This document shows positions 2,255 to 64,000 of a stretch of DNA of 64,000 nucleotides, piece after piece. This DNA comes from a virus (taxonomy: Duplodnaviria; Caudoviricetes): positions 137,265 through 201,264 of the IMG/VR virus record IMGVR_UViG_3300028374_000002. The stretch is one strand, 5' to 3'. A program made the translations under genes and the position numbers. Position 1 is the first letter of the stretch, and every line of letters begins with the position of its first letter. The notes under the pieces are model-generated. The model was not told the origin of the DNA and did no database searches. It saw nothing but the letters and a program-made list of their open reading frames with translations.

Positions 2255-3958
2255 TTAGTTTAATAATCCATTCTCGTCTGTAATTCTCAAAGTCATAAAT
2301 TGCTTTTGTGGGAACCAGCCTACTTCAGCTACTGCGTATCTTGAACGTAATAACATTCTAGGTGCAAAGGTAGCTTCCGAGATAACACTAATTGATTGTG
2401 CCATTAAGTAAGGTACAAATATGATACCTGGTTGGTCAGGATTGTTCTTTCTACCTAGAGCAATTCTGTTGTCGTTATACTTCATATATGGATCAACATA
2501 TATTGATATATCCCCGATAGAACCTACTGGGTAAAGTTGTCCAGCTCCGTTTAGTTTAGATTTTACTGGGTTAAGAGTATAACCTGAAACATCCGATAAA
2601 GCTGCTGCTAAACCACCGTTAGTAACTAAATACTGTGCTGGTCCAACACGTCCTTCTGTTGCAATGTAGTTAGATGCATGCATTATCTTTGTGATAAGCT
2701 TTCTTTGCACAGCGTGAGTTGTCTCACCACCTACGTTAGCACCTGCATAGTTCGTGTTTAAATCGAACAAAGGCACTCCTGTACCTCCTCCTGGTGGTGT
2801 TCTTAATGGTGCAGACTCTCTGTTAAGTTCTCCCATTTCAAATACTTTAGCAACAATTTGCTTAGATATTGTTTGAGAAAGTTCATTAACAAGAATGCTT
2901 TCCATTTTTTGAACGATATCCATACCAGTGTTGGCTTTGATATCTTCAATTTCAGTTCTTCTAAGTGCTGATGTTATCTCGATAGTACCAACGGCAATTG
3001 TTTTAGAAGAAATTTTCGGCCCAATGATACCTGCGTATCTCTTGTCATCTTGCTCTCTATCCATTGGATAGTTTCCAGAAAAACCATTTTCACTTGTATT
3101 CCAGTTTGCAGAAAAACCTGGTAATTGGTCTTCAAGTGCAGAAATAAGTTCAACTTTTGCACCAGATACTGTTACACCAGCAACATTAACTAATTGATCA
3201 GTCATTGCAGTTGTTGAATCAAAAGTGTTTCTTGTTTGGTCAAATGCCCATGTAGTTCCAGCAGTTCCAACAGCACCATGAGATGTGTTAAATTGTCTGT
3301 AAGCTCTAAACATTGGGAATCCATCAATACGTGAAAATCCTAAAAATTCTACTTGTCCTGTTTTATCAGATGCTTCTGTTGTAGTGATACCAGTATCTGG
3401 AGCGGTTTGTGCTGCGATATCATTGAAAAGCGTTCCGTTTTGTAAACCACCTTGTGATTCTACAATACCAGCAGTATTTAGTTGCTCCTTAAGTGCAGCT
3501 CTAACATCTGCGATATTATCAGCATTAAGTTTAAAAACTTGTGGTCTTTCGTCAGAAGCACCTAAATGTGCATCATCATATCTAAAATCTACGTAAAGTA
3601 AATCGATTTTTGGTCCAGGAGAAGGCTTTACTGCAACAAGGTCTAAACCTATTGTTTGTGCAGCAATCTTCATAGCTACTGGAAGTAAGTTTTGGCCTAC
3701 ATCTCCAGATCCCTGTGATCCACCGTTTTGTCCAAAAGCATTACCGATTGTTGAACCAGATAATGTTGATGGCTGTGCAGCTACAACACCTCCCATACCT
3801 GATACGTTAGATGCGTTTGCGTAAGCGTTTTCATTAATTGAGTGGAATTCTGCGTACTCGCTCATCCAGTCAATTCTGTCGCCAGAAACACCCATGTTCT
3901 CTAGAACTGGTGTCCACTTCTTCTTGGCTTTTTGATTGTCTATTCTAATGTGTGACAT
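2255..3958 (-). CDS. gp23: Major capsid protein (T4 gp23-like)
   Basis: KKWTPVLE N-terminus; ILVNELSQTISKQIV, NYIATEGRVGPAQYLVTN, IYVDPY, PGIIFVPY, RSRYAVAE motifs typical of gp23. Confidence 0.92.
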   Translation of the reverse strand: MSHIRIDNQKAKKKWTPVLENMGVSGDRIDWMSEYAEFHSINENAYANASNVSGMGGVVAAQPSTLSGSTIGNAFGQNGGSQGSGDVGQNLLPVAMKIAAQTIGLDLVAVKPSPGPKIDLLYVDFRYDDAHLGASDERPQVFKLNADNIADVRAALKEQLNTAGIVESQGGLQNGTLFNDIAAQTAPDTGITTTEASDKTGQVEFLGFSRIDGFPMFRAYRQFNTSHGAVGTAGTTWAFDQTRNTFDSTTAMTDQLVNVAGVTVSGAKVELISALEDQLPGFSANWNTSENGFSGNYPMDREQDDKRYAGIIGPKISSKTIAVGTIEITSALRRTEIEDIKANTGMDIVQKMESILVNELSQTISKQIVAKVFEMGELNRESAPLRTPPGGGTGVPLFDLNTNYAGANVGGETTHAVQRKLITKIMHASNYIATEGRVGPAQYLVTNGGLAAALSDVSGYTLNPVKSKLNGAGQLYPVGSIGDISIYVDPYMKYNDNRIALGRKNNPDQPGIIFVPYLMAQSISVISEATFAPRMLLRSRYAVAEVGWFPQKQFMTLRITDENGLLN

Positions 3959-4038: not shown

Positions 4039-6177
4039 TTATAGACTTTTGAACCTTTCTAATATTGCATTAGTTTCATCATCAGATAAATTATCCTCTT
4101 GGATTAGTTTATCATGTGAAATTAATTTCTTACTAGTCGCTTCGTTTTTCTTGATATTTCTAGTATCCCAGAAATGCTCAACTTGACTTTCGGTTATCAT
4201 GTTATCTTCTGGATAAAGTCTAGCTTGTGAAAGCACTGACTTTTTAGAAGTCCCATCTAACTGCTCCCAGACTGGCTTGATACTATCAGGCATTAGTCTG
4301 ACAACTCTGTCTTCTAGAGTTTCGTTCTTTGTTGATAAAGATTCGCTTATTAAACTTAGAACGTCTTTCTGTGTGAAATAACTACTTTCGTTTATATGTA
4401 GTTTAACGTTGTCTTGTTCTTCGTTAGTTAAAGCGTAATAACTATCTATTTGTGATTTGTTTAAGAACTTTAAAAAATTCAAATCACTCGTCTCAGAAAC
4501 TTTTCGTTTTTTAGCCTCTTCGATTAATTTATCAATAGATTCTGATAAGTCTGAATCACTTAATTCTGATTCTTCCATTTCACAATCTTCATCTTCTTTT
4601 TCTTCGTGTGCATGAGCAACTTCTGCCATTGTCTTAGCAATACCAGTTTGCTTTCTAGTACCTTCTTCATCGTGCATATCTTCTTCATCATGCATATCTT
4701 CATCATGCTTACCTTCTTCATCGTGCATACCTTCTTCATCGTGCATACCTTCTTGAACACCAAATCCAACAGACTCTAGTGTTGGGAATTGCTCTCCTTT
4801 AGATTCAAATAATTTACCACCATTAAGTTTTTCTACTATCATTCCTTGGTAGTCAACAGACTTGTCAAGGCTTTCAGCGATATACTCTGAATATGCAATG
4901 TTGTCATCTAGATTCTCTGCAATGTATTCTGAATAAGCAATATTACCATCAAGGTGTTCTGCTAGGTACTCTGAATAGTTAATAGAGTTATCTACATTTT
5001 CAGCAATGTATTCACTATAAGAAATGTTCTTACTTACGTTTTCAGCGATGTATTCTGAATAATTAATGTTCTTATCTAGATTTTCAGCGATGTATTCTGA
5101 ATAGTTAATGTTCTTATCTAGATTTTCAGCAATGTATTCTGAATATCCAATGTTCTTATCTAGATTTTCTGCAACATATTCACTATAAGCAATGTTCTTG
5201 TCTAAATTTTCAGCAATGTATTCTGAATAGTTAATGTTCTTATCTAAGTTTTCAGCAACATATTCAGAATAGCTAATAGCTTTTTCTAAATTCTCTGCTA
5301 AATAGTCGTTATGCTTAGCTAGTTTACCAGTTGTCTCCTTTAATGATTTATTTTCATTAACCATTACTTGTACTTTCTCTGATAAATAATCTAAGTATCC
5401 TATTACTTTTTCGTTAGTAGTATTAAGTTCTTCGTAATACTCTAATAATTGTTCTAGTTTCTTAGGGTTCATACTTCCCTTAGTTACTGCTCCCTTAACT
5501 TCCTTTTTAGTTTCGTTAAGCTCTTTAACTAAATACTGTGAGTAATCAGTTAATTGTTTCTTTGTTACAAATTCATTTTTGTTCATGTTGAATAATTCGT
5601 TTATTTTTGATTCATCGGACATTTCATATATCCTAAAGTTAGATTTGGCATCGTTGTAGCCTAATGATTCATTAAGTACGGTAACATTCATTTTAGCGGA
5701 TGCAAATCCAGGATCTGCTACAATGTCGTAAGTGAATAGTTTTTTAAGTGATACAGAACCGTCAGATTCAGTAACACCCGCTGCTCTTGATGATACAAAA
5801 ACAGGACAACCATCATTTACTAATGATTTTGCTTCTTTTCCCCAATAGGTACTTAAAAGCATAATCTCACCCTCTACTGAGTTCTTTTCTTGTACATAAT
5901 CTGCCTTTCTAATTATGTGCGAAGCTCTTGATAAAGAAGTATCGAATACGTCTGGGTGATCAAACTCACCATAAACAACTCCTAGACTATTCATTCTTTC
6001 ATTAAGTTCGCCCAAAGCTGGGAGAAACTTATCTGCTGAATAAACTCTATCGTTTCGATTTTTTACCCCGAATTCAGTGAAAGTCCCATTCATAACATAT
6101 TCACCCTTCTTAGCAGAACCGTTAGATTCTTTAATCAAGGAGTTTGTCGAATTTTCTACTATTAATACTGGTTTCAT
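4039..6177 (-). CDS. gp21: Prohead core protease fused to a long scaffold-like domain (gp21/gp22-like)
   Basis: GTFTEFGVKNRNDRVY, GEFDHP, VFVSSRAAG, TYDIVADPGF protease motifs, followed by coiled-coil, 14-aa repeats and an acidic tail; immediately upstream of the capsid gene. Confidence 0.88.
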   Translation of the reverse strand: MKPVLIVENSTNSLIKESNGSAKKGEYVMNGTFTEFGVKNRNDRVYSADKFLPALGELNERMNSLGVVYGEFDHPDVFDTSLSRASHIIRKADYVQEKNSVEGEIMLLSTYWGKEAKSLVNDGCPVFVSSRAAGVTESDGSVSLKKLFTYDIVADPGFASAKMNVTVLNESLGYNDAKSNFRIYEMSDESKINELFNMNKNEFVTKKQLTDYSQYLVKELNETKKEVKGAVTKGSMNPKKLEQLLEYYEELNTTNEKVIGYLDYLSEKVQVMVNENKSLKETTGKLAKHNDYLAENLEKAISYSEYVAENLDKNINYSEYIAENLDKNIAYSEYVAENLDKNIGYSEYIAENLDKNINYSEYIAENLDKNINYSEYIAENVSKNISYSEYIAENVDNSINYSEYLAEHLDGNIAYSEYIAENLDDNIAYSEYIAESLDKSVDYQGMIVEKLNGGKLFESKGEQFPTLESVGFGVQEGMHDEEGMHDEEGKHDEDMHDEEDMHDEEGTRKQTGIAKTMAEVAHAHEEKEDEDCEMEESELSDSDLSESIDKLIEEAKKRKVSETSDLNFLKFLNKSQIDSYYALTNEEQDNVKLHINESSYFTQKDVLSLISESLSTKNETLEDRVVRLMPDSIKPVWEQLDGTSKKSVLSQARLYPEDNMITESQVEHFWDTRNIKKNEATSKKLISHDKLIQEDNLSDDETNAILERFKSL
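4855..5310 (-). repeat. About 10 tandem 42-bp (14-aa) coding repeats, consensus NINYSEYIAENLDK
   Basis: Ten YSEY units counted in the protein; 42-bp periodicity visible in the DNA (coordinates approximate). Confidence 0.9.
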
Positions 6178-15102: not shown

Positions 15103-15149
15103 AGTATATATATTATTTTAGAAAAAGAACATTTCTTAATATATACAAT

Positions 15150-60880: not shown

Positions 60881-61624
60881 TTAAAATTGTTTTTCATAAG
60901 ATTCTTTTCTTAAATCAAGAACTTTCTCTATATATTTATTTCTTCTAAGTAATTTGAATACTAAATTACCTGTAGAATACTCACCACTTTCACTTTCTAG
61001 GCCAGACTTTCTATACTTTTTTATTTTATCCCAGACTTTCTTAACACGCTTTTTATATTCATCATAATCATATTTATCTATTTCGTCTTCTAAGTCATCA
61101 ACTAGCATCATAATACCCTTAGCCTTTTCTTTAATATCCATATCGTCTGGTATAAAGTCAACCTTAACAGGCTCTATATTCCATTTATTATTAAGTACTG
61201 AATACACACCAGAAGACCTATGTGGTTCTTTAATATCTTGTATATAGACTTCAACTTCAAAACCATTGACATATAAATCATATGATTTATTCCATAGGTT
61301 TTTAGCAGAATCCGTAAACTTTTTAACTAGTTTAGTATCAGAGTTAACCTTTTCAAAATCTATTATTATGTGTAAATCAAAGTCTGAATATTTCTCAGAC
61401 CAATTAAAGTTAGCCAGTGATCCAGTTAAGGTAATATCATCTATTTCAACATTTAGGCTAGTTGTATTATAAAAGTCTTGTGATATAGTTAATAACTTTT
61501 CACGCACCTCTTCTTTCATACTTTTATCTTCCCAAACTTTAGTGTTTAATTCATCTTTTATGTGAAAAGATTTAACTGCATCGAAATCCTTTTCCACAAA
61601 TTCTAAAAACTTAGTTACTTTCAT
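60881..61624 (-). CDS. Pol-beta superfamily nucleotidyltransferase
   Basis: ITLTGSLANFNWSEKYSDFDLHII (GS...DxD) and VEVYIQD third acidic residue; leader MKVTKFLEFVE. Confidence 0.8.
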   Translation of the reverse strand: MKVTKFLEFVEKDFDAVKSFHIKDELNTKVWEDKSMKEEVREKLLTISQDFYNTTSLNVEIDDITLTGSLANFNWSEKYSDFDLHIIIDFEKVNSDTKLVKKFTDSAKNLWNKSYDLYVNGFEVEVYIQDIKEPHRSSGVYSVLNNKWNIEPVKVDFIPDDMDIKEKAKGIMMLVDDLEDEIDKYDYDEYKKRVKKVWDKIKKYRKSGLESESGEYSTGNLVFKLLRRNKYIEKVLDLRKESYEKQF

Positions 61625-61703
61625 AATTATATATATTAAAATATTAAGACCACATTTCTAAACTTATTGTTTTAAATTAATATAATACTAAATAACAAAA
61701 GAT

Positions 61704-61913
61704 ATGAAACTTAGAGATAATGGAATTATAACAAAGGCAGACTATATTGGCAAGACTTTGGGCGAAGCTTCTAAACATGCAGAAAATGGTGGCTACGTCA
61801 CAAGGGTGGTTAGTAACAATGGTAATTCTCCTATGTTAGATATGGATGCTAATCAGAATAGAATTAATTTTATTATTAGTAACGATAGAGTTACTGATGT
61901 ATATGGTGGATAA
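61704..61913 (+). CDS. Small protein resembling peptidase inhibitor family I78
   Basis: YIGKT..EA...RVV.......MD....RINF.I.N..VTDVYGG. Confidence 0.5.
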   Translation: MKLRDNGIITKADYIGKTLGEASKHAENGGYVTRVVSNNGNSPMLDMDANQNRINFIISNDRVTDVYGG

Positions 61914-61935
61914 TTAAAAATAATTATAATAAAAC

Positions 61936-61966
61936 TTGTGAGAACCATTTAATAGTTTTATATTTG
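61936..61966 (+). promoter_or_regulatory. Bacteroidota-type sigma-A promoter upstream of tRNA cassette 1
   Basis: TTG at 61936-61938, 20-nt spacer, TATATTTG at 61959-61966. Confidence 0.65.
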
Positions 61967-62036
61967 CATAGTAAAATAAATATAAGATTTTTAAAGAAAA
62001 GTATAAAGAGAGAAAATAATTTTAATATATAGAATA

Positions 62037-62135
62037 ATGAGAACAATTAACACATTTAAGCATTTTAGTAAAAAGTCGTTTTGGTTTAGTCCAAGATCGG
62101 TAAAGAATGTTATTTGTTCTAATTTTATGATTTGA
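62037..62135 (+). CDS. Putative attenuator leader peptide 1 (MRTINTFKHFSKKSFWFSPRSVKNVICSNFMI)
   Basis: 32-codon ORF after TTAATATATA (62022-62031); Phe/Lys/His/Trp codon cluster; followed by a terminator and tRNA-Lys/Phe/His/Trp. Confidence 0.7.
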   Translation: MRTINTFKHFSKKSFWFSPRSVKNVICSNFMI

Positions 62136-62160
62136 TATAAAAATAGTAAAAAATATATTT

Positions 62161-62193
62161 AAAGCCGAGCTTCGAAAGAAATTCGGCTTTTTT
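62161..62193 (+). terminator. Intrinsic terminator / attenuator ahead of tRNA-Lys
   Basis: AAAGCCGAGCTTC-GAAA-GAAATTCGGCTTT-TTT; 13-bp stem with one mismatch, GNRA loop. Confidence 0.85.
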
Positions 62194-62202
62194 GTTTTAT
62201 AT

Positions 62203-62276
62203 AATTCTGTAGCTCAGCTGGTTAGAGCATCTCCCTTTTAAGGAGAGGGTCGTGGGTTCGAAACCCACCAGGATTA
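62203..62276 (+). tRNA. trnK: tRNA-Lys(UUU)
   Basis: Cloverleaf; anticodon arm TCTCC-CT TTT AA-GGAGA; T-arm GTGGG-TTCGAAA-CCCAC; no encoded CCA. Confidence 0.92.
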
Positions 62277-62281
62277 CACAT

Positions 62282-62354
62282 GGAGTAGTAGCTCAGTAGG
62301 TAGAGCACTTGGTTGAAGACCAAGGTGTCGTGGGTTCGAACCCCACCTTCTCCA
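62282..62354 (+). tRNA. trnF: tRNA-Phe(GAA)
   Basis: CTTGG-TT GAA GA-CCAAG; GTGGG-TTCGAAC-CCCAC. Confidence 0.92.
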
Positions 62355-62365
62355 CAAGATTAAAT

Positions 62366-62439
62366 GGTGTGTGTAGCTCAGTAGGTAGAGCGTTGGCTTG
62401 TGGTGTCAAAGGTCGGGGGTTCGAAACCCCTCATACACC
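62366..62439 (+). tRNA. trnH: tRNA-His(GUG)
   Basis: TTGGC-TT GTG GT-GTCAA; encoded G-1 pairing with C73. Confidence 0.92.
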
Positions 62440-62448
62440 CTAAATAAT

Positions 62449-62520
62449 ACGGACGTAGTTCAAAGGCTAGAATAACGATCTCCAAAATCGTAGATGAGAT
62501 TTCGAAATTCTCCGTCCGTG
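62449..62520 (+). tRNA. trnW: tRNA-Trp(CCA)
   Basis: ACGAT-CT CCA AA-ATCGT; acceptor ACGGACG/CGTCCGT. Confidence 0.88.
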
Positions 62521-62551
62521 CTAGAGTTTAATAAAAATAATATATAGTATA

Positions 62552-62623
62552 ATGAAACTTATAAACACATCGAGTAGTTCAAGTCGCTTAATAATTTCGA
62601 AAGAGATTCGATTGTGTGTGTAA
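62552..62623 (+). CDS. Putative attenuator leader peptide 2 (MKLINTSSSSSRLIISKEIRLCV)
   Basis: 23-codon ORF after ATAATATATA (62537-62546); TCG AGT AGT TCA AGT CGC run; followed by a terminator and tRNA-Arg/Ser/Ser. Confidence 0.78.
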   Translation: MKLINTSSSSSRLIISKEIRLCV

Positions 62624-62644
62624 TTATTTTTTAAAAATATTATT

Positions 62645-62675
62645 AGCCTTTCGAATTTATTTGAAAGGCTTTTTT
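62645..62675 (+). terminator. Intrinsic terminator / attenuator abutting tRNA-Arg
   Basis: AGCCTTTCGAA-TTTA-TTTGAAAGGCT-TTTTT. Confidence 0.85.
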
Positions 62676-62747
62676 AGTTCTATATTTCAACGGATAGAAT
62701 ACTCGGCTACGGACCGAGAGATAGGGGTTCGAATCCTCTTAGAACTA
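62676..62747 (+). tRNA. trnR: tRNA-Arg(ACG)
   Basis: CTCGG-CT ACG GA-CCGAG; acceptor AGTTCTA/TAGAACT. Confidence 0.9.
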
Positions 62748-62755
62748 CTAATTAT

Positions 62756-62845
62756 GGAAGATTTATCCGAAAGATTCTGGGTAGCGGAGACGGTCTTGAA
62801 AACCGTTTGCTTTAGGGCGTGTGGGTTCGAATCCCACATCTTCCG
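62756..62845 (+). tRNA. trnS: tRNA-Ser(UGA)
   Basis: ACGGT-CT TGA AA-ACCGT; long variable arm; G73; enlarged D-loop. Confidence 0.88.
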
Positions 62846-62857
62846 CATAATTTTAAT

Positions 62858-62946
62858 GGAAGCGTACTCAATGTTGGCAAAGAGGCTGGTTTGCTAAACC
62901 AGTAGGTCTGTAAAAGGGCGAGTGGGATCGACACCCACCGTTTCCG
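62858..62946 (+). tRNA. trnS: tRNA-Ser(GCU)
   Basis: CTGGT-TT GCT AA-ACCAG; long variable arm; G73; atypical T-loop ATCGACA. Confidence 0.86.
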
Positions 62947-63999
62947 CTAGTTTTTTATTAGTTCCTTTAATTCGTCTATTTGCTGTTGTAAGCTATCTAT
63001 CTTATTATTTTGCTCTTTATTCTCATTTTCCTGCTCTGCAAGTTTTAGAGATAAGAAACTATTATAATTAACAGACATCATTCCACCGTCTTCTGGTTTC
63101 TTAACAACTCCTGGATTTGTTTTTTCTATTTCTTGAGCTATAGTACCATATACAGTAATTCCTGGTTGAGTTTTTAATTCATAAGAATATACTGATTTTG
63201 ATATCTTTTTAATATTGGTTTTAAGCCTTTCGTCAGAGCCTTCGAAAAAGTTATCTGCTGTAAAATCTCCACTCCAATCTAAATTTTTATCAGATGTTAA
63301 AGCAAGCCTACCATTATTATCTACTCCAGAGTTTGATGCTAAGTGAAAATCTATATATCTTCCAATCTCCATTAATCCATCGGCACCAACATCAGGTATA
63401 AATGGCCAAGGTATATTTGCATTAGCACCTGCTATACTTAAACCATTTAAAGATGAAGCATCTACATTTGTAATCCGTGATCCATTTCCAATAAAGTTTT
63501 GTGCTGTAACATCGCCGAATGCTCTAAAATTACCCGACCCTCTACTAAATATAAACCTATTTAAAAATGAAGAGCCCGCGTCACGATATATAATATCAGC
63601 TCCCATATCAGCTATTAAAGTTGTTCCTGTAGCTTGGTATTTTAAATGACCTACATTACCAAAAGGTGAAGTACCACCTATTTTAAATTGAGAATTATCG
63701 TTAATAGTTAGTGCACTTCCTGAAAAATTATCACTGGTATTGCTTCTTAAAAAATCATTACTATCTAAACTATCTAAAGTTGCAGCATCTACATTTGTAA
63801 TCTGTGATCCATTTCCAATAAAGTTTTGTGCTGTAACATCGCCATTATAATCCAAATTACCGTTTTCTCTTAAAGTTAGAGATTTGTTAGAAGCATCATT
63901 TCGTATGCTAAGATCCGAGAACATAGTTATAGGAAATCCAATATAACCTTTGCGTGTTGTTCCGTTAGATTGATAAAATGAATAAAAAGAAGAGCTATT
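62947..63999 (-). CDS. Tail fibre protein, C-terminal part with intramolecular chaperone (peptidase S74); partial, start lies beyond window
   Basis: SDERLKTNIKKI...GTIAQEIE...VNY...coiled coil; frame stays open upstream of 63924 to the window end; duplicated GDVTAQNFIGNGS.ITNVDA module. Confidence 0.82.
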   Translation of the reverse strand, partial: NSSSFYSFYQSNGTTRKGYIGFPITMFSDLSIRNDASNKSLTLRENGNLDYNGDVTAQNFIGNGSQITNVDAATLDSLDSNDFLRSNTSDNFSGSALTINDNSQFKIGGTSPFGNVGHLKYQATGTTLIADMGADIIYRDAGSSFLNRFIFSRGSGNFRAFGDVTAQNFIGNGSRITNVDASSLNGLSIAGANANIPWPFIPDVGADGLMEIGRYIDFHLASNSGVDNNGRLALTSDKNLDWSGDFTADNFFEGSDERLKTNIKKISKSVYSYELKTQPGITVYGTIAQEIEKTNPGVVKKPEDGGMMSVNYNSFLSLKLAEQENENKEQNNKIDSLQQQIDELKELIKN

Positions 64000-64000
64000 A

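Follow-up and report, generated by a model that had tools for sequence, protein, structure and literature searches.

A probable leader-peptide attenuator in front of a phage tRNA-Arg/tRNA-Ser cassette and codon-matched leaders at other tRNA cassettes of related phages

Introduction

The trpL, hisL, pheL, and leuL leaders of Escherichia coli and Salmonella combine a short open reading frame (ORF) carrying the regulatory codons with an upstream hairpin (1:2), an antiterminator (2:3), and an intrinsic terminator (3:4); which of these forms depends on where the ribosome stands, and the signal is the supply of charged cognate transfer RNA (tRNA). A similar arrangement was analyzed here in a 64,000-nucleotide (nt) stretch of phage DNA (hereafter, the window), positions 137,265 to 201,264 of the IMG/VR record IMGVR_UViG_3300028374_000002. 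Within it, positions 62538-62675 probably form a ribosome-mediated (leader-peptide) transcription attenuator of the tRNA-Arg(ACG)/Ser(UGA)/Ser(GCU) cassette that the phage carries, to judge from sequence comparison and RNA folding. Unlike the trpL-type leaders, this unit would regulate tRNAs instead of biosynthetic enzymes, and its product would feed back directly on the sensor. It is also viral and has no sequence or Rfam relationship to those leaders, and it uses a phage start signal without a Shine-Dalgarno sequence, which may give a leaderless mRNA.

In the ilvGMEDA (Ile/Leu/Val) and thr (Thr/Ile) leaders, one leader mixes codons and integrates several shortages, and mixed-codon leaders also occur in the phage units (Ser and Arg; F/K/H/W in a second unit of the window; N/L/M/T/V/I/R in relatives). 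In ilvGMEDA and thr the mix reflects a shared pathway, whereas the phage mix mirrors the tRNA list of the cassette down to the isoacceptor. Termination/antitermination that responds to the decoding or charging of the cognate tRNA also governs translation-apparatus genes in pheST (leader pheM) and in T-box systems. PheM controls a synthetase, while the phage unit would control tRNAs; the T-box binds uncharged tRNA independently of the ribosome and is characterized by a specifier loop and a T-box sequence, whereas the phage unit has neither feature and no Rfam match. The tRNA genes themselves are generally regarded as constitutive or growth-rate controlled, and to our knowledge no ribosome-based demand-sensing of individual tRNA genes is known in cells or viruses.

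Phage tRNAs can counter tRNA-targeting defence, as described for the T5 tRNAs against PARIS AriB (PMC11464382) and for anticodon-loop escape (PMC10264068). The cassette considered here would act likewise, with phage-encoded tRNAs replacing or supplementing host tRNAs lost in infection; those two papers concern tRNA action, and demand-sensing control of transcription is not described there. A full-text literature search yielded no description of leader-peptide attenuation of tRNA genes, phage or cellular, and the huge-phage paper (PMC7162821) mentions neither attenuation nor leaders.

Organization of the Ser/Arg unit

The window makes up the final 64 kb of a 201-kb record with a CheckV completeness estimate of 28%, which points to a very large phage; its guanine-cytosine (GC) content is 29%. 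The plus strand carries seven tRNA genes, Lys/Phe/His/Trp at 62203-62521 and, after a 154-nt spacer, Arg(ACG)/Ser(UGA)/Ser(GCU) at 62676-62947. The parts of the Ser/Arg unit are as follows:

62538-62546, plus strand: motif TAATATATA, gene-start or promoter-like, 5 nt before the ATG of the Ser/Arg leader
62552-62623, plus strand: Ser/Arg leader ORF, 23 codons and TAA, from the ORF list and homologue conservation
62570-62587, plus strand: codons 7-12, TCG AGT AGT TCA AGT CGC, all decodable by the three downstream tRNAs
62559-62575, plus strand: region 1, predicted 5' arm of the leader hairpin (anti-antiterminator), paired with 62606-62623 in the minimum free energy (MFE) fold
62603-62623, plus strand: region 2, predicted 3' arm of the leader hairpin, holding GAGATTCGA (62603-62611) and the stop codon, from folding and family comparison
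62590-62603, plus strand: extra, lineage-specific candidate antiterminator strand, complementary to 62648-62661 at 13 of 14 positions (mismatch 62595/62656)
62645-62675, plus strand: regions 3 and 4, predicted intrinsic terminator, with 5' arm 62645-62655, loop 62656-62659, 3' arm 62660-62670, and a run of T residues (T-run) at 62670-62675
62676-62748, plus strand: tRNA-Arg(ACG), found by ARAGORN and Infernal, beginning right after the T-run
62756-62846, plus strand: tRNA-Ser(UGA), given as 62769-62846 by ARAGORN and 62757-62844 by Infernal
62858-62947, plus strand: tRNA-Ser(GCU), found by ARAGORN and Infernal

The two programs disagree on the 5' boundary of tRNA-Ser(UGA) (62769 vs 62757), and the acceptor stem GGAAGAT/ATCTTCC favours a start at about 62756.

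An earlier note, made from the letters of the window, had read this locus as a Ser/Arg-sensing attenuator. The ORF, its codon run, and the later TCG (codon 16) and CGA (codon 20) are present as the note described them, and the correspondence that it drew between the leader codons and the three following tRNAs holds for codons 7-12. Ser and Arg make up 8 of 22 residues of the window leader against a background of 0.112 (binomial P = 1.8e-3). Codon usage was computed from the 162 long ORFs of the 201-kb record and amounts, per 1000 codons, to 2.3 for TCG, 0.3 for CGC, 0.8 for CGA, 2.7 for all CGN, and 24.3 for AGA, which bears out the rarity of TCG and CGN that the note had suspected; AGA/AGG account for about 92% of Arg codons genome-wide. 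It was also observed that the phage, which would sense CGC/CGA and carries tRNA-Arg(ACG), hardly uses CGN codons itself.

The terminator between the ORF and tRNA-Arg, likewise recognized in the earlier note, has an 11-bp stem followed by T6 and is the top terminator-like site within 61500-64000. As tRNA-Arg(ACG) starts directly at the end of the T-run, there is no room for a separate promoter between them. The terminator stem begins 21 nt after the leader stop codon, and a ribosome terminating at that codon would thus cover region 2 and not the terminator.

The window contains 19 copies of the motif TTAATATATA, where 3.2 would be expected, and TAATATATA precedes the ATG of many long ORFs, as well as that of both leader ORFs of the window, by 4-6 nt. 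Both leader ATGs stand 5 nt after TAATATATA, and the leaders therefore bear the normal gene-start signal of the phage. This motif may be a promoter yielding nearly leaderless mRNAs. There are 27 TAATATATA sites in the window, for example at 15137, 25909, and 45869, and on the minus strand at 61638, 26928, and 24261.

Homologues and conservation

The sole informative GenBank match was LR745206.1, a 634,780-bp genome of an uncultured phage, with 71% identity over the spacer and tRNA-Arg; no close relative was found among GenBank phages. The 634-kb genome was assigned to the Mahaphage clade, with Bacteroidetes predicted as the host (Al-Shayeb et al. 2020, PMC7162821). Its unit opens with the promoter-like motif, followed by an ORF of 24 codons that contains T-S-K-S-S-S-R-S-S-S, by a GC hairpin and T-run, and then by tRNA-Arg(ACG) and several Ser tRNAs.

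Further homologues were sought in viral and metagenome contigs with a pattern drawn from the 3' end of the ORF only, the Ser run being excluded against circularity, and chance matches were removed before counting. In total, 35 homologous Ser/Arg units were obtained, comprising 29 distinct ORFs and 31 distinct unit sequences. Every unit has a Ser run followed by AGT-CGC. Of the 29 distinct ORFs, 26 precede tRNA-Arg(ACG) with Ser tRNAs behind it, and the remaining three either have 5-89 nt of downstream sequence or lack an ARAGORN call (L115). The peptide consensus is M-K-T-I-x-x-T-S-x-S-S-S-R-S-S-K-x-S-E-V/I-R-L/S-Y-S. A pattern ATGAAANNNATNAAC..ACATCG was rejected as a homologue probe, nearly all of its matches being chance ones inside genes. 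A search for the leader pattern in 185,579 prokaryote genomes gave three matches, all by chance in coding DNA.

The leader ORFs fall into length classes of 72, 75, 78, 81, and 105 nt, all multiples of three, a 30-nt insertion included, while the spacer between the stop codon and the terminator has nine lengths (25-33 nt) in all three classes modulo three. The 30-nt in-frame insertion, seen in the L086, L103/L113, and L124 leaders, adds ten codons with 4-5 Ser and one Arg (CAA AGA, not CGN). Equivalent Ser positions alternate between the AGY and TCN codon boxes. Across the family, 38% of leader codons specify Ser and 9.7% specify Arg; relative to genome usage, TCG, CGA, and CGC are enriched 46-, 51-, and 164-fold, respectively, and 62 of the 73 leader Arg codons are CGC or CGA. 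A GC-rich hairpin with a T-run is present in 31/31 homologues, with compensatory changes in its arms. All 31 distinct units keep the reading frame. The interpretation of AGTAGTTCAAGTCGC as a remnant of a tRNA T-arm was also rejected, in view of the lack of a flanking stem, the lack of a tRNA-model match in the spacer, and the codon run being kept in frame.

RNA structures and proposed mechanism

The RNA from the leader to the terminator of the window folds better than its shuffles (z = -2.9). The MFE folds of the window and the first six homologues contain two elements, a long leader hairpin and the terminator; the 5' arm of the leader hairpin takes in the beginning of the Ser run together with the codons immediately preceding it, and the 3' arm extends from the E-I/V-R codons through the stop. 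The stalled state was modeled by masking the RNA to 12 nt past the CGC codon and omitting the 3' arm of the terminator. Under these settings the same alternative fold was predicted in 7/7 sequences (-12 to -21 kcal/mol). In this fold, (G)AGRTTCGA at the leader end pairs with TCGAAYYT, which is the 5' arm and loop of the terminator.

In the window, the family antiterminator is GAGATTCGA at 62603-62611 pairing with 62651-62659, and it is mutually exclusive with the terminator. Pairing of the core is retained in 30-31 of the 31 sequences and shows two-sided covariation; its five central pairs are nearly invariant. The next pair is A:T in 7, G:C in 20, and G:T in 4 sequences, with no mismatch in 31, and the pair after that is G:C in 13, G:T in 14, and A:T in 3, with one mismatch. 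The observed pairing was reached by one of 5,000 partner shuffles, a figure inflated by relatedness, and the main weight lies on the pair types. The earlier note had placed the antiterminator at 62590-62603. That pairing is real in the window, where the strand forms the strongest duplex (-10.2 kcal/mol; -8.4 kcal/mol as a long-range helix), but it is absent from the other homologues and belongs to the window lineage only; the strand common to the family is the one at 62603-62611. An Rfam cmscan search of 61900-63000 (E <= 10) placed only the seven tRNAs above threshold and gave no leader-family or T-box match; the best match in the spacer, the trpB motif, was sub-threshold and at chance level (22.6 bits vs 59, E = 1.8).

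The short ORF, the clustered cognate codons, the factor-independent terminator, and the exclusive antiterminator that characterize leader-peptide attenuators are all present. The sequences show the elements with their order and conservation, as well as the codon match and the covariation, and we infer from them leader translation, stalling, and read-through. Transcription would start at or just before the leader ATG, and a ribosome would translate the 23-codon leader. With fast decoding, the ribosome at the stop codon would cover region 2, the terminator would form, and RNA polymerase would stop at the end of the T-run, one base before tRNA-Arg; if the leader were not translated, region 1 would pair with region 2, and the terminator would form as well. 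When the capacity of Ser-tRNA(UGA/GCU) or Arg-tRNA(ACG) is short, the ribosome would stall on codons 7-12 and cover region 1, which would free region 2 with GAGATTCGA and, in the window lineage, also 62590-62603. The freed strand would then pair with the 5' arm and loop of the terminator (62648-62661), no terminator would form, and the three tRNAs would be transcribed. The new tRNAs would relieve the stall in a negative feedback loop, self-limiting because its products are the limiting tRNAs.

Depletion of tRNAs by host anticodon nucleases, the trigger favoured in the earlier note, is a conjecture; the circuit would answer whenever decoding capacity runs short. The trigger could be the loss of host tRNAs that follows shut-off, a defence system that cleaves tRNAs, or a codon-usage mismatch.

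The helix between regions 1 and 2 (62559-62575/62606-62623) was predicted in the window and six homologues, and its 3' arm was fixed by the search pattern. Several points weigh against an attenuator of this kind. At 7-8 bp, the core of the antiterminator is short, and it is also less stable than the terminator (-12.7 to -20 kcal/mol), so the antiterminator must win kinetically, and the centre of the core, TTCGAA, is palindromic, hence part of the complementarity is cheap. The Ser/Arg codons 16 and 20 lie inside region 2, and a stall there would favour termination. Amino-acid starvation would also induce the circuit, with no gain for the phage.

Matched leaders at other tRNA cassettes

The upstream cassette of the window is preceded by a second unit of the same layout:

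62022-62031, plus strand: TTAATATATA motif, 5 nt before the ATG of the second leader
62037-62135, plus strand: second leader ORF, 32 codons, with codons 7-17 encoding FKHFSKKSFWF
62163-62193, plus strand: intrinsic terminator of the second unit, by hairpin prediction
62203-62521, plus strand: tRNA-Lys(UUU)/Phe(GAA)/His(GUG)/Trp(CCA) cassette, found by ARAGORN and Infernal, directly after the second terminator

In the second leader, 11 of 31 codons are decodable by its four downstream tRNAs, and homologues were found at L001:236-331 and L068:917-1018.

For a survey of leaders, the tRNAs were located in LR745206.1 and three related contigs, and leaders were sought where ARAGORN left a gap of at least 100-120 nt before a tRNA. 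Eight units in LR745206.1 and seven in a second contig were found, each with a small ORF and a hairpin and each enriched in the amino acids of its own cassette. The leader types include the following:

H/F/W-rich leader, before a His-Phe-His-Phe-Trp cassette
K-rich leader (4 of 8 residues), before four tRNA-Lys
YESYYEE leader, before a Glu/Tyr cassette
I/G/A-rich leader, before an Ile-Gly-Met-Gly cassette
N/L/M/T/V/I/R-rich leader, a 38-mer, before a 19-tRNA block of those amino acids
PQPQDQD leader, before a Pro/Asp cassette
QQIQQQQ leader, before three tRNA-Gln

Among the 40,320 permutations for LR745206.1 and the 5,040 for the second contig, no other assignment equalled or exceeded the true pairing of leaders with cassettes, whether residues or wobble-decoded codons were scored. 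The match extends to isoacceptors, the Ser/Arg leaders having CGC/CGA with Arg(ACG) and the N/L/M/T/V/I/R leaders AGA only with Arg(UCU). Most leader types share a similar beginning (M-K/T/N-T-I/T-N...), suggesting that they are paralogues, each adapted to its own cassette. The attenuator reading of the earlier note is supported by the conserved ORF, frame, and codons, the terminator, the covarying antiterminator, and the codon-matched leaders at other cassettes.

Taken across the huge-phage clade that includes LR745206.1, these units likely constitute a genome-wide, modular monitor of decoding capacity, in which almost every cassette, for about 18 amino acids, stands behind its own re-written paralogous attenuator and tRNAs are made on demand and limited by feedback. 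Such a system may be an inducible answer to the loss of host tRNAs by shut-off, anticodon nucleases, or codon-usage mismatch. No such leaders were seen in the tRNA stretch examined of the 735-kb phage LR756501.1, and the system is therefore not general to all huge phages. Nor would attenuator control apply to every tRNA, since some tRNA-Met(CAT) genes are leaderless: single genes of this type stand directly behind the promoter-like motif, with no leader ORF or terminator, at L061:871, L064:1264, L066:652, L069:762, and L077:890.

If the proposed control is real, the question of why phages carry tRNAs would become directly testable, as the circuit reports which codons the phage "expects" to run short, and the inducers of read-through would separate the codon-supply, host-shut-off, and anti-defence hypotheses. 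The unit would also be a compact, modular, and re-programmable part, in which a swap of the codon run changes the tRNA shortage sensed. It would also offer a clear example of how attenuators evolve, a single leader scaffold (M-K/T-T-I/T-N...) having been adapted to at least eight cassette types.

The Lys-cassette leaders of relatives (L001:991-1052, L008, L058, L060/L068, and L076) have 9-11 codons, 4-5 of them Lys, and a stop codon overlapping an 11-12 bp hairpin; this hairpin differs wholly in sequence among phages, with compensatory changes, and has no T-run. The Lys tRNAs may be gated by a different mechanism, perhaps ribosome occlusion.

Alternative explanations

The most serious rival is a leader that is translated and codon-matched yet acts by a route other than the trp type, through hairpin occlusion, stall-triggered cleavage or processing of a tRNA precursor, or a reversed, pyrBI-like logic in which fast translation gives read-through. 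It draws on the Lys leaders of relatives (L001:991-1020; L008, L058, L060, and L076), which end directly at a hairpin lacking a T-run and hence cannot be canonical trp-type units, and on the shortness of the antiterminator core in the Ser/Arg unit itself. That unit, however, has a canonical hairpin with a T-run, its stop codon lies at least 21 nt before the stem, too distant for a terminating ribosome to mask the terminator, and the covarying pairing between the leader and the terminator arm would be superfluous in a plain occlusion or processing model. We regard this route as improbable for the Ser/Arg unit. The leader could also be a non-coding structured RNA, such as a processing signal, a small RNA, or a pause/terminator module, with the ORF and its Ser/Arg codons as by-products of RNA constraints. 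Much of the ORF does lie inside conserved helices, and the variable residue of S-S-K-x-S follows the inner hairpin, where CTCGTC or CTCGA faces ATG, ACG, or TTG; some codons are therefore shaped by RNA pairing. Yet the frame is kept over five length classes and is not kept in the adjacent spacer, the Ser positions alternate between unrelated codon boxes, and the start signal is identical to that of real genes; nor can RNA structure alone explain eight leaders each enriched in the amino acids of its own cassette. A purely structural role is accordingly very unlikely.

Similarly slight is the chance that the ORF encodes a functional Ser-rich micropeptide whose transcript ends at the terminator, the tRNAs being made by leaky read-through. 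Conservation of the consensus at the peptide level would agree with it, but the window peptide differs at six central residues (LIISK vs SSKxS), yet codon run, hairpins, and tRNA neighbours are all retained, and the variable residue follows RNA pairing and not chemistry. A micropeptide also gives no reason for peptide composition to track anticodons over eight cassette types. Short ORFs are common at 29% GC, and one could arise by chance in an AT-rich spacer that holds a terminator; 31 distinct homologues, the 46-164-fold enrichment of rare codons, and the permutation results contradict this explanation, to which we give almost no credence. The leader-peptide attenuator accordingly remains the preferred reading of the Ser/Arg unit.

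Additional observations

A convergent minus-strand ORF at 62947-63999, open at the window edge, probably specifies a tail fibre or spike and includes a Peptidase_S74 domain (endosialidase chaperone); its stop codon abuts the end of tRNA-Ser(GCU). A role of the 62645-62675 hairpin chiefly as a bidirectional terminator for this gene was rejected: the hairpin lies 270 nt beyond the gene, behind three antisense tRNAs, has no minus-strand T-run, and adjoins tRNA-Arg also in relatives with other neighbours. The sequencing runs containing 61950-62960 or 62030-62950 were of lake and salt-lake metagenome DNA, with no RNA runs among them.

In relatives, tRNA-Lys genes of 84-91 nt were observed (L001:1149-1414, L008, L058, and L060), an unusual length for tRNA-Lys that would fit a long variable arm or an insertion. 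Homing-endonuclease-like ORFs lie between tRNA genes or cassettes (L058:2526-2855 and 4658-4987; L076:600-870; L074:2375-2604 and 3593-3822), and in places they part a cassette from its leader.

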